The translations under genes and the position numbers were made by a program. From NCBI RefSeq assembly GCF_041248615.1, contig NZ_CP158426.1: a stretch of DNA of 64,000 nucleotides; one strand, written 5' to 3'. Positions 31,591 to 39,158 of this stretch are shown piece after piece. The notes under the pieces are model-generated. The model made no database searches. It was not told where the DNA came from and was given only the letters and a program-made list of their open reading frames with translations. The stretch is from Escherichia coli. Its GTDB lineage: Bacteria > Pseudomonadota > Gammaproteobacteria > Enterobacterales > Enterobacteriaceae. Position 1 is the first letter of the stretch, and every line of letters starts with the position of its first letter.

Positions 31591-32142
31591 CTATCTTCTT
31601 AGCGATGTCTTTCTGGTATCACATTGGATCGGTGCAATTATTTTTCCTTTAATACCCATTATGTTAAGAAATTCAGAAACAGCTGTAATCTCATTGTTTT
31701 TTTCATTCGTCTTGATCTTCCAAGGAATCTGACTGTGCATTATTGAGAACACACTAATAACGTGAATCGCTCCCTTGCGACGACTCTTGTCATAAGAGTA
31801 CCGGAGCGTTTTTCCATCAATTGCAATGACGTCTTTATCATCTGAAGAATGGCAGTCAAGCATCCAGTTAATAAAGCACTCATGAAATTTTTCAGGACTG
31901 ATACAGGATACAACTCTGGCAATGGTATCGTGAACAGGAATACCATTATCAAAATCACCATATTGCTTCAAAAAATCGAGATGTGTTTCCCCAAAATCCT
32001 CTATATCTTCCCAGCCTTCTGCACCCGAAATAACGGCACAAATAGTCAACAGTAGAATATCCGATAATTTATGTTCCACTTTCCAGGCTTGTCTGTAATC
32101 GGGGATAATAGAAATATGTCCCATCAATTTTTTAAGTTCCAT
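31591..32142 (-). pseudogene. ISAs1-family (H-repeat) transposase, N-terminal fragment only (3'-truncated remnant)
   Basis: 183-aa ORF aligning to the N-terminal half of the second H-repeat transposase in this window (shared ...DYRQxWK...AEGWEDIxDFGExHL...GxPxHxTIARV...AIDGKxLR...); remainder absent; upstream end shares the ISAs1 terminal region with the other copy. Confidence 0.75.
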
Positions 32143-32727
32143 TTTGTTCTCCTTAATTATGTAAGGAGTATTTGATCATGTATACGCAATAAAAAACAGC
32201 TTCAGGTAATGAGGAATATCTCAATTGTTAAACATAAAATGCGAATTGTCTAGTACAAAAAAGCAGCGTTACGTGATCTTTCCGTGGATCGTCAAATTGT
32301 TCGAGAGAAAATACCAACATGATGGATTTTACTGTAAAAGTAATGTCGTAGTTTAAAAACTCATCATCCGGTAAAGCCTTGTGGGGCGTGGGCTTTCATA
32401 CTTTTACCCTGATGTCTGCTATACGCCGGACACCCTTTACGTAGCATTCGGAATTCACCCGTAAATTTATCACGGCGGTATCACGAAACCTCCGGTTCTG
32501 ATGCCGCTTAGGACTAACGACACGTCAACACAGGTTCGGGTTTATTCATTTCACTGTATCTCATATAATCTGAGCACTCCCCCTGCGCTCGCTACTATGA
32601 CTCTTTACCACAGCAACCGGGGTTGTTTGGGATCGGCTTTCAACAGCAGATCCCGGTGGCTATTGCAAGTAAGTCTACTTTCCACATCAGTGTTACTGAC
32701 ACAGAAAATAATGAGTTATGATCCTTG

Positions 32728-33213
32728 TCATATTTTTAATATAGCCCCATGAGCTATAGGATCAAAACCTTCTAACCATGAGGTGTTTTTATCGAATAAT
32801 GCACCTGTTATATTTATATCGCCATATCTATCACATAATAAATTAGCGCCACATAAGTCAGCACCAGAAAAATTTGAATCTTTAACGTCTGCATTGCAAA
32901 AGGTTGAATTAGTTAATATAGCACCCTCAAAGTTTGCACCTATTGACCTTGAATTACTAAAGTCACTTCCAGTGAAATCTGAGTTATTAAGAATAGCGTT
33001 CATCAGAGCCGCATTGCGAAAGACAGCATTTCTAGTTGATGTATGTTGAATCATTACATTTCTTAAATGGGAATTTTCAAATTTCGCCCCATCAAGACAA
33101 TAACCATTGAGGATGGCACGATGTAGATCCATCCCGCTAAAATCATATCCAGCAAGAGTGGTACTATCTATATCAAGAAATTTATTGGTTATTAAAAACG
33201 CGATTCTTATCAT
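32728..33213 (-). CDS. Pentapeptide-repeat protein, candidate Rhs immunity protein
   Basis: 161 aa with about 20 consecutive pentapeptide repeats (central L/F every fifth residue, e.g. [20 protein letters not shown]); AT-rich; start overlaps the Rhs stop codon (ATGA). Confidence 0.8.
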
Positions 33214-36200
33214 CTATTCCCCCAATCATCTAACTCCGGAAAAATTTGGCTAAACGGATATAGTGGTGCCGATAATGGACGCGTACCTGGCCGCTCAGGA
33301 GGAAGTTTATCACATAACAGACCCGCAACCATCCTGTGATTACCATTAACAATCACATTCCCATCCATATCAACCGGTGGTGCTCCACTACCATCTTCCA
33401 GCATTTGTACGTAGTGAGCTACTACGGGTACTGAGACTTTTTGTTGTACTGTCAACAAGGGACTGTTGGCCACAACCATCCTGATGTTTTCAGGTGTCGT
33501 AGGTAAACATTTAGTCTTCTCTTGACTAAAGGTATCATCCCACAATTTTGTTAAACCCATCACTGCCTGTTGTCTGTATTTATCCATGGGGTCAGCAATC
33601 AACCAAGATGGACCTGACTGCTCTATGGAATCTTCTCCGGAGAGACCCAACGGATCTATCTTAGTAGTTGGATTCAATGGATACTGATACAGGTTCCATG
33701 CACCTCTTAGCCCAATGGGATCCTGGGTGATATACCGCCCCTGCAACGGGTCATAGTACCGGTTGCGGTTATAGTACAGCCCCGACTCCTCATCATACTG
33801 CTGCCCCGGCAGACGGTACGGCTGTTGCAGTTGCTGCGCGCTGGTTTCGCCCAGCAGGTTTCCCCACTCGTCATACTCCCCCTGCCACGCCGTTTCCCCT
33901 TCCGGGCTGATGAGCGCCTGCGGCAGCCCCCGGTGGTCGCAGTGGTAAAGATGAAGTGTCCTCTCCGGGATGTATTCCGCCTCCATCTGGTTTTTCATCT
34001 GTTCCGCCGTCAGCCCGCACTGCTGAAGCCATGCCTCACTCTCCGCACTCACCGCACCCGCGCGCAGTTCCCGCTCCAGCCTCCCCAGCATCACCGACAG
34101 CTCCGCCGGTAGCGTCACCCCCGTGTCCTCCTGCAACACCTCCGCCAGACTCCGGTGCCGCGCCTTCGCCTGTTCACCATTCTCTGTTTCGATTCTGATG
34201 AGCGGCGTGAAGCTCCCCGGCTGGTATACCGTCTGGATACGCGTGGTGCCGGTCTGTACCGTCGTCAGCCTGTCACCGTCCCACCCGTACCAGGTCTCCT
34301 CCGGTTTACGCGACAGCGACATCCACCCCGTCAGGTCACGCTCCCGCCGCCACACCCGTTTCCCCGTCCGGCGGCCCAGCGGGTCATAGAGGTAGCGGCT
34401 CTCCACCTGTGGCTCGCCGTGCTGTATCCGCGTGTAGAACACCAGGCGGTGCTGGCTGTCGTAATGGTAGTGGTGCGTCCGCTCGTCGTGCATCCGTATC
34501 ACCCCTTCCGGGATACGGTCCGTCTTCTCCGCCAGCCTGCCGTATTCATCGTAGCGGTAGACATAGTGCGCATCTTCCGTGATGCGGTTATCCGGCCACG
34601 CCGTGAAGGTGCTGTCCGGGTGCAGTTCCGGGTCCGGCAGCCGGTTTCCTGCCGGGTCCGTCGCATACGGGATATCGATATCCAGGTTCGCCGCCGTGGT
34701 GTGAACGCCCGTCAGTCTTCCCGTGTCGCTGTAACGGTACTTCCGGCTCTCCTGCGGGCCGCTGATGCGCACCAGTTGCCCGTTATCGTTCCACGTATAC
34801 TCACGGTCAAGCTGCGGAAGGTTCAGGTGCCTGCTCCGGAGCTGCCCTGTGAGGGTGTACGCCGTGGCCTGTTCGTACCCCGCTGTACTGCCCGCCCCGC
34901 CGAAGCTGCGGGCCGTCTCACGGTGCAGCCGGTCCCGCGTGTACTCGACCAGCGGCGTTCCGCCCAGCTTCATCCCCGCAAGATAACCGCTGCCATACGT
35001 CAGCCACTCCACCGGCGGCAGACCGTCCGGCTCCTGACGGGTCGCCAGCCCCTGTTCGCTGTAGACGTGCCTCGTCTCATGCTCCCACAGCATCTCCCCC
35101 GTCTCCTGGTTCTCCACCGTCTGCCGTTCGCCCGTCAGGCGGCCTTTATCGTCATAGCCGTAGTGGACCGCCACACGGTGGCCTTCGCTCAGGTGGCTGA
35201 TTTCTGTCAGCCAGCCGTGGTCGTCATACTGCCACTGCTCCGCCGGGTCGCCGTTCACCGTCCGGTGCGTGATGCGCCCGGCGTCATCGTAGTACCACTG
35301 CGTGACCTGCCCCTCATCCTCGCTGCGGATGAGCTGCCCTGTGGCGCTGTACCGGTAACGCTGTGTCCTGCCGTCAAAGCCGCGCTGCTCCGTCAGCCTG
35401 TCCACCGGGTCATACCGGAACGTGGACTGGCTGCCGTTCTCGTTGGTCAGCACGGTGATGCGCCCGGCGGCGTCATACTCCATGCTGCGCGTCAGTCCGC
35501 CCTGCGTGGTGCTGACGGCCTTTCCCCACGCATCATACTGTGTCTCACTCCGGCTGCCGTTCGGGGCAATGATAGCGGTGAGGTCGCCTGCGGCGCTGTA
35601 CTCATAACGGGTTTCACGTCCCTGCGCATCCTTCTGACTGACCAGTTGACCACGCGGGTTATAACTGCTGTAAGTGCTGATGCCTTCCTCCCGGTGAACC
35701 GCCGTCCTCTGACCGTACCGGTCGTATTCATACCGCGTCGTGTACCCTGAACAGTCCGTAAATGCCTGAAGCTGACCGTACCGGTTTCGCGTTATTCTCC
35801 GCCTCACCCCGGTTCCGTCTTCCACCGCACAGGGCAGGCCACTGCGGGAAGAATCATAAAACCAGCGCGTAATGTTACCGTTGCGCGAGACCTCTTCCGC
35901 CAGCCTGCCCTGACGGTCATATTTCCGGCTGCGGCGCAGCCCGTCCGGGTACGTCACTGACGTCAGTTGCAACTGGTTGTTGTAACCATACCGTACCGTC
36001 CTGCCGTCCGGCAGTATCACTGAAGTCAGCTTTCCCGACGCCATATGCAGCCGGTACTCCGTCCGCCGTCCCGCCGCATCCGTCTGCGCCTTCAGCCTCC
36101 CCGCCTCATCATACTCGCTGCGGGTGATGCTCCCGTCCCCATACTCCTTCTTCACCACCCGCTTCAGGCCGCCCTCGCCCTCCGTGTACAGCACCTCCCG

Positions 36201-37831: not shown

Positions 37832-39158
37832 GCAGGGCGAAATCATGAAGGCCCGCAGCCAGCAAGGATTAGAGAAAGGTATTCATTCTTACGTCCTGCC
37901 CGCTTTTGCTTGCGTTTAATACCCGCTTTAAAGCTATTCTCTGCGGTCAGTAAATTCATCGCGATATGTCGACAAACTGCCAGATTTTCTCCCGCTTCTC
38001 CACGAACAATCTGGCATTCATCTTCCCGCATCCCCATATCAAGTCGCCAGTGCAGTTGATTTTCTACCGACCAGTGTGCTCGTGTTGCTTCCAGGAGTTC
38101 TTTCGCCGTAAGCGTCACCGAACTTATGTAGTAGCGAAGAATACACTTCTCTGATTTCACCGCTGTTTCTCCTTCCTGTCTGCTCGCCAGCACTATTCCT
38201 ATCGTGCTCAGCTCTGACCATTCATAAGCTAAATCACCCAGAGCGGTTAAATCATGGCTCACAATGCAGCATCGTGTATCTTCCCGTCCATGCCCTTTTT
38301 CCTGCGTGCTGTAACTGTCATACCTCTCACCCAGCCACATTGTCGGCGAGTACCCGTTATCAAACGCCTCCGCTAATTTTCCCTGATTTCCTTTCAGCGC
38401 CAGCAGGTAACCGGCTTTCTTTTTCAGAATTTCACGGGCGATTATATGCTGGCAACCCATTGCATCCAGCGTGACCAGACACCCTTTTAATTCCAGCAAC
38501 TGGAGCCGTTCCGGGATCGCCGTTATCTCATTCGATTTTGCCCCTGTTTTCACCTGCCCCAAAACCAGACGATTTTCTGCGCTAAAAGCACTGACCCTAT
38601 GGATCACGGCATTACGTTTCGATTTATCGTAAGTACCCCGTAATGACTTACCATCAATCGCCACAACAGAGCCTTCAGACAACGTGTGACAGTCCTTCAT
38701 CTACTGGATAAAAAGGGGCTGTAATTGTTTTGCTGAAATCATTCCCATCACTCGGGCAATCGTGTGATGGGAGGGGGTGCCATTTTCAAAATCACCATAC
38801 AGGCGTAACCATTCCAGATGCTCCTCACCAAAATCAGCAATTTCTTCCCATCCTTCAGCGCCACCGATAATGGCGGTGATCGTCAGAAAAAGGATATCCG
38901 CCAGGCTGTAACTGGTTTTCCAGGACTGGCGATAATCGTGAATAATTGAAATTTGATCCAAAAGGCTTAGTCCGTTCATGGTGTGCTATCCATCAAAAAG
39001 AAAGGATAAGATCACACTGAAATAAGATGGTCAAATTGATCGAAAAAAAAGATCAACATGATGGGTTTTACGATAAAAGTAATGTCGCGATTTAAAAATT
39101 CATCATTCACCAAAGTCTTGTGGGGCGCGGGCTTTCATGCTTTTTCCCTGATACGCTA
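37832..39158 (-). mobile_element. ISAs1-family (H-repeat) insertion sequence, about 1.3 kb
   Basis: Imperfect terminal inverted repeats atcatgaaRgcccgc at both ends; carries the H-repeat transposase frame; boundaries approximate. Confidence 0.7.
37843..38979 (-). pseudogene. ISAs1-family H-repeat transposase interrupted by an in-frame amber codon
   Basis: Two adjacent ORFs (92 aa and 285 aa) in the same frame separated only by TAG at 38701-38703; together they form a roughly 378-aa DDE transposase of the H-repeat-associated family. Confidence 0.75.

Follow-up and report, generated by a model that had tools for sequence, protein, structure and literature searches.

A predicted ParB/sulfiredoxin-fold toxin domain at the tip of an Escherichia coli Rhs protein and its pentapeptide-repeat partner

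The DNA considered here is a stretch of 64,000 nucleotides from Escherichia coli (NCBI RefSeq assembly GCF_041248615.1, contig NZ_CP158426.1; "the window"), and the element in question is an Rhs gene together with the small gene for a pentapeptide-repeat protein (PRP) that directly follows it (Table 1). RefSeq names the two products 'RHS element core protein' and 'pentapeptide repeat-containing protein'. The NCBIfam model RHS_core (NF041261) matches the Rhs protein with 2513 bits over residues 1-1260, ending exactly at DPLGL, and at the N-terminus Pfam DUF6531 (residues 49-126) is followed by RHS repeats. An earlier note on this DNA, made from the letters alone, had placed the end of the core at a PxxxxDPxGL motif ([10 protein letters not shown]), had described a C-terminal extension of lower GC content after it, had quoted from that extension a stretch ([22 protein letters not shown]) that includes GNHR, and had observed that the next gene starts within the Rhs stop codon. 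All of this is borne out by the sequence and its composition: exactly 143 low-GC residues follow the motif, the quoted stretch is present, the ATGA overlap is as described, and the GC fraction, 0.60-0.72 in the core, is only 0.43-0.45 in the tip and lower still, at 0.35, in the PRP gene. The core-end motif marks the expected site of autoproteolytic release of the tip.

Table 1. Features of the Rhs element and its immediate surroundings, in window coordinates (position 1 is the first letter of the window).
Feature	Position	Strand	Basis
Full-length Rhs gene, 1403 residues	33210..37421	minus	open reading frame (ORF) list
Core-end motif PxxxxDPxGL = [10 protein letters not shown]	33642..33671	minus	read from sequence
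143-residue tip, then stop	tip 33213..33641, stop 33210..33212	minus	read from sequence
Variable linker that precedes the toxin domain, tip residues 1-39 (Rhs 1261-1299)	33525..33641	minus	family matches begin at about tip residue 40
Predicted ParB/sulfiredoxin-fold toxin domain, tip residues 40-143 (Rhs 1300-1403)	33213..33524	minus	
GNHR, Rhs G1360-R1363, predicted phosphate-binding P-motif	33333..33344	minus	invariance and hhalign register
161-residue PRP, WP_000618048.1, immunity candidate	32728..33213	minus	Pfam and gene context
ATGA, overlap of Rhs stop and PRP start, 4 bases	33210..33213	minus	
GGGGG, Shine-Dalgarno-like run 6-10 nt upstream of the PRP start	33219..33223	minus	
About 440 bp of non-coding DNA co-travelling with the module	32288..32727		genome coverage comparison
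ISAs1 (H-repeat) transposase remnant bounding the Rhs element	31591..32142	minus	ORF list and RefSeq pseudogene annotation
Second ISAs1 (H-repeat) transposase remnant, upstream of Rhs	37843..38979		RefSeq pseudogene annotation

The tip, including its last ~104 residues, has no match among the Pfam, NCBIfam, PHROGs or PADLOC models, and neither the tip alone nor a profile of its family finds anything credible among the sequences of the PDB; the best matches there, to SRP54 N-domains (E 0.2-0.6), were taken as chance. A word-indexed protein search gave only two fragments, and the family emerged only when 1.84 billion cluster representatives were searched exhaustively with HMMER: 329 clusters (at 50% identity) match at E<=1e-3 and 117 at E<=1e-10. 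The match always spans tip residues ~40-143 and lies nearly always at the C-terminus of the target protein; for almost every one of the 150 homologues listed it begins near tip residue 40. The family consensus reads VTxxxIRxA...T.Q..VS.P.VQRYV..L..G..APPIKVDG..IVDGNHRY.AG.L.G..P...PG...S.....P...I..D..DWGN. Invariant or nearly so are Q27, S31, P33, G45, P49, G61, H63, R64, A67, D100 and W101, all of which are kept in the E. coli tip, and the central motif takes the form (D/N)G(N/H)HR across the family, with DGHHR in some members. The carriers are Rhs proteins, CdiA/filamentous haemagglutinin (FHA) proteins (with a VENN motif, DUF637 or filamentous haemagglutinin), Hint-domain proteins and 'wall-associated' proteins, and in at least two family representatives a VENN motif precedes the toxin domain. 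Such a range of carriers is, at the level of sequence, the signature of a polymorphic-toxin warhead. A pattern-based, incomplete scan with the family profile, covering one genome per species of GTDB r220, yielded 67 loci in Pseudomonadota, Bacteroidota, Bacillota, Actinomycetota, Planctomycetota, Myxococcota and Verrucomicrobiota, plus a few single loci in other phyla. A tblastn search of plasmids with the tip gave one match only, in Pseudomonas.

The PRP is recognised by the Pfam models Pentapeptide, Pentapeptide_4 and Pentapeptide_3 over residues 18-125 (Pentapeptide, PF00805, E 1.8e-8), and residues 1-17 and 126-161 form non-repeat caps. The earlier description of a protein made almost entirely of pentapeptide repeats is thus right as to the repeats and overstated as to their extent; 'mostly' fits. 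Among solved structures the PRP matches pentapeptide-repeat proteins (QnrB1, MfpA and AlbG-like), and its own model has single-residue strands with a period of five, making about six coils. When all ORFs of the 67 loci (~8 kb each) were compared with the E. coli PRP by phmmer, a homologue was found in 54 loci (E 5e-31 to 3e-3), and in 53 of those it sits at the toxin stop. The sole match elsewhere, in a locus where the PRP gene lies 2 kb from the toxin match (L026, 1816-2307 and 4001-4240), serves as a background control. If each PRP gene is taken to begin at whichever candidate start codon is closest to the toxin stop, 20 loci show an overlap of 4 nt and nine an overlap of 1 nt, and in 14 others the start falls 0-12 nt downstream. 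The homologues are ~160 residues long, with family-specific caps (MIxIxxETG...LHRA at the N-terminus, TxWPxGFDPxxxGA at the C-terminus), conserved residues that include H31, R32, R51 and W146, and an acidic net charge of -1 to -13.

Pairwise identities of toxin and PRP correlate across loci (r 0.59, a value reached by none of 2000 permutations in a mirror-tree test), and the PRP diverges faster (22-60% identity, as against 32-81% for the toxin). Such a correlation would be expected for co-transferred, co-evolving partners, with shared descent alone making a contribution. The gene data, including a PRP remnant that lies among NTF2-fold and Imm57 immunity genes downstream of rhsA (described below), support the view that the PRP is a conserved cognate partner of the toxin family, and a partnership that extends over at least seven phyla points to a role in immunity, so that the proposal of a polymorphic toxin/immunity pair at this locus is supported.

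The relatives closest to the E. coli tip come from Neisseria, Aggregatibacter and a gammaproteobacterial metagenome-assembled genome (54-61% identity; [11 protein letters not shown]). In these loci (L002 629-1036, L004 1200-1607, L003 3604-4128 and L005 4311-4712) the toxin is followed by divergent Cys-rich pentapeptide proteins (FTNCNFINCSF...). They match the E. coli PRP weakly, at E 1e-6 to 1e-3, and immunity would therefore have diverged much faster than the toxin in that sub-branch.

Loci in which no PRP was found comprise contig ends (L038, L045), weak matches, a toxin branch marked by ...L.IQP, and a few others (L012, L056, L064). The ...L.IQP branch lacks the C-terminal DWGN, and a HAD-type protein of 112-118 residues follows the toxin in L006 (1155-1526), L028 (273-701) and L070 (2716-3063), the last with an intact Rhs gene and a 4-nt overlap with the partner gene. 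In an alignment of four HAD-type partners D13, D15, S51, K76, D82 and D83 are invariant and can be assigned to the four HAD phosphatase motifs (DxDxT, S, K, DD). The partners of standalone Bacteroidota ParB-like proteins at L053 (4324-4806) and L060 (4335-4805) match HAD_SAK_2 (PF18143, E 1.7e-26), and in L071, also of the ...L.IQP branch, the partner is a small helical protein. Given PRP, HAD-type and helical partners, the toxin superfamily appears to use several types of immunity, with the PRP accompanying the toxins that end in the conserved Trp region (DWGN). Where the partner is a phosphatase with its catalytic motifs intact, the toxin may make a phosphorylated product. Among the loci without a PRP, that of Sinorhizobium sp. 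6-70 (L012, 4001-4294) encodes an Rhs-associated protein of at least 1430 residues whose toxin domain is 43% identical, with no PRP downstream; an ORF of ~1290 residues that has no NCBIfam match begins ~120 nt after the toxin. Its interpretation as a Tc-type insecticidal toxin needing no immunity was dropped, as NCBIfam finds only the Rhs core there and Pfam nothing.

The resemblance of the tip motif to sulfiredoxin and ParB is more than chance, and the fold read from it in the earlier note is upheld by modelling. AlphaFold2, run on the tip with a 68-sequence alignment (A1), gives a predicted local distance difference test score (pLDDT) of 94.3 and a predicted template modelling score (pTM) of 0.87. 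In this model G61-R64 lies between a strand (57-60) and a helix (62-70), so that the invariant or near-invariant G61, H63 and R64 form a GxxR at the start of a helix after a beta-hairpin. The fold search returned Atu1540 (5.2), plant sulfiredoxin (5.2), SbnI (5.1), free serine kinase (SerK; 4.7), human sulfiredoxin (4.5), PadC (4.4), KorB (4.4), the N-terminal part of pNOB8 ParB (4.0) and, at rank 10, Spo0J (3.5). Foldseek against the PDB found nothing significant, its top two matches, Atu1540 (E 1.1) and pNOB8 ParB (E 3.2), being again of the ParB/sulfiredoxin kind. Against AFDB50 it found 72 matches at E<=1e-3, many at 30-57% identity, and many of these are named in UniProt 'ParB/Sulfiredoxin domain-containing protein' or 'ParB-like nuclease domain-containing protein', which means that automatic superfamily annotation already places the relatives there. 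Profile alignment with hhalign sets PPIKV...DGNHRY on PPIDV...GGCHRY of sulfiredoxin (E 0.004, probability 8%) and, in the same register, on QPILV...AGERRW of ParB (E 0.011, probability 4%), which is how the earlier note had matched them, the low probabilities arising because the templates are single or shallow; the human sulfiredoxin and Caulobacter ParB sequences used are identical to PDB entries.

Taken as a prediction from models, the assignment to the ParB/sulfiredoxin fold is well supported, though remote. Box III (ENxxR), a helix-turn-helix (HTH) and a C-terminal dimerisation domain are absent from the toxin domain, which stops ~40 residues past GNHR with no further helical domain in the model, so that it would represent a minimal version of the fold. 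GNHR is the predicted counterpart of GERR in ParB and of GCHR in sulfiredoxin, and it sits at the junction of strand and helix at which these two proteins and the ParB-fold toxin ToxB, described below, bind nucleotide phosphates. When the base-contacting position of ParB (S74; D75 in ToxB) is mapped onto the family, the spacing-based and hhalign-based registers disagree. Sulfiredoxin, SerK and SbnI are ATP-dependent phosphotransferases with this fold, to which the toxin domain is only 9-19% identical; the catalytic Cys of sulfiredoxin is replaced by Asn, and none of the three shares the toxin context of the Rhs tip.

The closest described analogue is ToxB, a CdiA C-terminal toxin of Erwinia amylovora and other Enterobacterales with a ParB-CTPase fold, reported in a preprint of May 2026 (10.64898/2026.05.05.722872). 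ToxB carries G105-N106-H107-R108 where ParB has GERR, the predicted counterpart of the GNHR discussed here; it binds and slowly hydrolyses ATP, and ATP binding is essential. Its toxicity needs G105, R108 and W134, and is abolished by G105A and R108A. It has no Box III and does not bind DNA, yet compacts the nucleoid without DNA damage or an SOS response, and its immunity protein, iToxB, acts as a dimer that occludes the active site (10.64898/2026.05.05.722872). Like ToxB, the Rhs tip is a small C-terminal polymorphic-toxin warhead by architecture, with a predicted ParB-type fold and a G-N-H-R P-motif, and like ToxB it has neither Box III nor an HTH nor a dimerisation domain; a Trp downstream of the P-motif is conserved in each family and essential in ToxB, and in both systems the immunity gene, a candidate one in the case of the Rhs tip, lies directly downstream. 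The two differ in carrier (CdiA for ToxB, Rhs for the E. coli tip) and in reach. ToxB was discovered through Pfam PF02195, which no member of the Rhs-tip family matches, and occurs in 52 of 68,709 species, whereas the Rhs-tip family comprises 329 clusters at 50% identity and 67 loci in the scan. The ToxB preprint (10.64898/2026.05.05.722872) mentions neither pentapeptide repeats nor Rhs.

ParB-fold toxins had been predicted in silico well before. Zhang, de Souza, Anantharaman, Iyer and Aravind (2012, PMC3482391) described two classes, Tox-ParB and Tox-ParBL1, which end RHS and filamentous-haemagglutinin proteins, and gave Imm20, Imm27, Imm-SuFu, Imm-SUKH and Imm44 as their immunity families. 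The DGHHR of Tox-ParB compares with DG(N/H)HR in the Rhs-tip family, where some members have DGHHR itself; the partner described here, a PRP, stands outside the listed immunity families, and the word 'pentapeptide' is absent from the text of PMC3482391. No Pfam model for the Tox-ParB or Tox-ParBL1 classes matches the tip.

On the side of the partner, the known relatives are Qnr, MfpA, AlbG and McbG, with which the PRP shares the right-handed quadrilateral beta-helix and an acidic character. It falls far below the thresholds of the gyrase-protector families, scoring 32.3 bits for Qnr (cut-off 240), 37.2 for MfpA (360) and 33.5 for QnrB (460), and differs from these proteins in being shorter, in lacking a C-terminal helix in the model and in its family-specific caps. 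Its genetic tie is to a protein toxin; theirs is to gyrase poisons. The earlier note knew of no characterised Rhs toxin with pentapeptide-repeat immunity, and this is almost true. The one case found in the literature on pentapeptide-repeat immunity for polymorphic toxins is Tse6/Tsi6a of Stenotrophomonas rhizophila (preprint, July 2026, 10.64898/2026.07.13.738213), in which the toxin forms the C-terminus of an Rhs protein and is paired with Tsi6a, an immunity protein that is similar to pentapeptide-repeat proteins. Tse6 has orthologues on PAAR, Rhs, HINT and TPS carriers in Proteobacteria, Planctomycetes, Myxococcota and Actinomycetes, and is assigned as a 'nuclease' without evidence and with no ParB fold reported (10.64898/2026.07.13.738213). 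In a comparison by description only, none of the species named for Tse6 is among the 67 loci of the incomplete, pattern-based scan, which argues against identity of the two families. TagB/TagAB, the pentapeptide proteins that are accessory to type VI secretion, were set aside as they are not immunity proteins.

From sequence, models, gene context and analogy with ToxB, we infer that the locus holds an intact Rhs toxin/immunity module in which a nucleoside triphosphate (NTP)-dependent enzyme toxin would be blocked by direct binding of the PRP, a reading to which a probability of about 0.6 is given. After delivery, assumed here and probably by a type VI secretion system, self-cleavage at DPLGL would free the toxin domain, which would then act as an NTP-dependent enzyme in the cytoplasm of the target cell. 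It might hydrolyse ATP or CTP, but more probably it would transfer a phosphoryl group to some substrate in the cell, relying in either case on Rhs R1363, the Arg of GNHR. Phosphoryl transfer is favoured over plain NTP hydrolysis because sulfiredoxin, SerK and SbnI are among the best structural matches and because HAD phosphatases occur in the sister branch. The rigid, acidic beta-helix of the PRP would bind the toxin and block its nucleotide/substrate cleft, as iToxB does for ToxB, and translational coupling would ensure that the immunity protein is made whenever the toxin is made.

Several points weigh against this account. Delivery is assumed: PAAR is absent from the Pfam matches of the Rhs protein, and vgrG is not among the genes adjoining rhs, where ISAs1 remnants lie instead, although a view of the window cannot show a type VI system elsewhere in the genome. 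Pfam ParBc (PF02195) matches neither the tip nor any of 68 family members at E<=0.1, the sole related Pfam match among the 68 being ddrB-ParB at E 0.35. The likeness to ToxB rests on motif, architecture and fold class. The hint at a phosphorylated product, given by the HAD-type partners, comes from five loci of a different branch. A model of toxin and PRP fused by a 30-residue GS linker, built on a paired alignment, reaches a pLDDT of 89.9 and a moderate pTM of 0.68; set against our rough estimate of ~0.56 for two confidently folded but unplaced domains, it weakly favours a specific toxin-PRP complex.

The principal rival, and the mechanism proposed in the earlier note, makes the tip a ParB-like DNase or DNA-modifying enzyme that the PRP neutralises by mimicry of B-form DNA, as Qnr and MfpA do for gyrase. 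Nuclease activity was predicted for the RHS- and FHA-borne Tox-ParB with DGHHR (Zhang et al. 2012, PMC3482391), the PRP has the classic DNA-mimic fold, the family PRPs are acidic throughout their range of net charge, and the nucleoid collapses under ToxB (10.64898/2026.05.05.722872). Yet nothing indicates nuclease activity of the tip, and ToxB, which hydrolyses ATP, neither binds DNA nor elicits DNA damage or an SOS response (10.64898/2026.05.05.722872). The toxin domain has neither an HTH nor any other DNA-binding module; the ~6 coils of the PRP mean that a monomer would span ~3 nm, the PRP model has no dimerisation helix of the Qnr/MfpA type at its C-terminus, its scores of 32-37 bits compare with Qnr/MfpA cut-offs of 240-360 bits, and the HAD-type partners of the sister branch suggest a phosphorylated product rather than DNA cleavage. 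In light of these observations a nuclease countered by a DNA mimic is considered unlikely.

That the PRP might instead shield gyrase, another topoisomerase or some other DNA-handling machine, as Qnr, McbG and AlbG do, without binding the toxin at all, is a very unlikely alternative, even though all functionally understood bacterial PRPs of such size are known to act on gyrase and although topoisomerases are discussed as targets in connection with the nucleoid compaction caused by ToxB (10.64898/2026.05.05.722872). A protector of a conserved target would not be expected to co-vary with the toxin and to diverge faster than it, a pattern typical of a binder of polymorphic toxins, nor to be exchanged along with the toxin branch, as happens in the branch without the C-terminal Trp, where HAD-type or helical partners are found; there is some inter-domain confidence in the fused model, and immunity proteins of polymorphic toxins are generally known to bind the toxin directly in nearly all cases. 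Least probable of all is the view that the rhsE locus is unused in this strain and that the gene pair persists as an inert relic by hitch-hiking. It could appeal to the pseudogene state of rhsE in K-12, to the ISAs1 remnants that flank the element with no vgrG or PAAR nearby, and to the narrow occurrence of the module within the species (143 of 5426 complete E. coli genomes), but it sits poorly with an intact ORF of 1403 residues that matches the full RHS_core model, with the retention of every near-invariant residue of the toxin family, with the intact overlapping start and Shine-Dalgarno-like run, and with 143 copies that are at least 99% identical.

The reading of an NTP-dependent toxin bound directly by its PRP can be taken further. 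In this extension, which is possible but on the unlikely side, the pan-bacterial toxin family would be a phosphotransferase acting on a nucleic-acid or nucleotide substrate, the PRP would mimic that substrate, and the HAD phosphatases of the sister branches would remove the phosphate placed by the toxin. If true, toxin immunity would be a second general role of the pentapeptide-repeat fold beyond gyrase protection.

The toxin class as such is already known, having been predicted in 2012 (PMC3482391) and first demonstrated in 2026 with ToxB (10.64898/2026.05.05.722872). What is new is a family that PF02195 does not detect, which far exceeds the ToxB clade in size and includes an Rhs protein of E. 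coli; a dedicated pentapeptide-repeat partner, absent from both the 2012 and the ToxB papers; and the HAD-type partners of the sister branch. The family thus provides a larger and more diverse set of ParB-fold toxins together with a representative in E. coli, and it exposes a gap in annotation, a toxin domain with neither a Pfam nor an NCBIfam model. Its partners are of two kinds, the PRP as an inert binder and the HAD-type protein as a phosphatase that is probably active, and together they narrow the likely chemistry towards phosphoryl transfer. To our knowledge, thousands of bacterial pentapeptide-repeat proteins are without known function, and the only well-understood role of these proteins is the protection of gyrase from quinolones and peptide poisons. 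The conserved pairing of one PRP subfamily with one toxin domain, seen in at least seven phyla, opens a second role, that of immunity against a protein toxin, to a direct test by means of two small genes from E. coli.

Within E. coli the module of tip and PRP is present at 99% identity or more in the 143 complete genomes counted above. At least 80% of the segment 32143..32727 is covered in only 144 genomes, and elsewhere just its first ~145 bases match, which are the end of ISAs1; tip, PRP and ~440 bp are common to the same 143-144 genomes. The gene order of the window runs narH, narW, narI, yddE, nhoA, yddH, pptA, a sulfatase gene, a GGDEF gene, an ISAs1 remnant, PRP, Rhs, the other ISAs1 remnant, yncG, ansP and yncE, and this flanking order (nhoA, yddH, pptA ... 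ansP, yncE) puts the Rhs element at the rhsE position of the E. coli chromosome. K-12 has at the same site a truncated rhsE, which is a pseudogene, and ydcD. The alignment of K-12 RhsE with the Rhs protein of the window extends only as far as the DPxGL motif, and YdcD shows no relationship to the PRP (BLASTP E = 1.4), so that the difference from the K-12 rhsE/ydcD module stated in the earlier note is real; the replacement of the tip reads as a classic C-terminal displacement. Degraded ISAs1 (H-repeat) genes lie on both sides of the element, and the K-12 locus is arranged alike, but with another tip and a truncated core.

On a metagenome contig (L072, 1292-4081) the gene for a 929-residue Rhs protein with the toxin domain has as neighbours genes with products that match the succinate dehydrogenase flavoprotein (upstream) and the iron-sulfur subunit and Sdh5 (downstream), an unusual insertion site; no same-strand gene directly follows it, and no obvious immunity gene is seen. 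At L016, L026, L037, L041 and L051 there are toxin-domain fragments preceded in frame by just 7-24 residues, with intact PRP genes after them, and these look like displaced orphan toxin/immunity cassettes. A decayed, truncated remnant of the PRP gene, 95% identical, is found in 132 further E. coli genomes. In E. coli TUM14759 (L069, 5920-6285) it lies downstream of rhsA between yibH and yibA as two partial pentapeptide coding sequences, and its neighbours in this one genome examined are NTF2-fold and Imm57 immunity genes and rhs fragments, an array that looks like an orphan-immunity graveyard.

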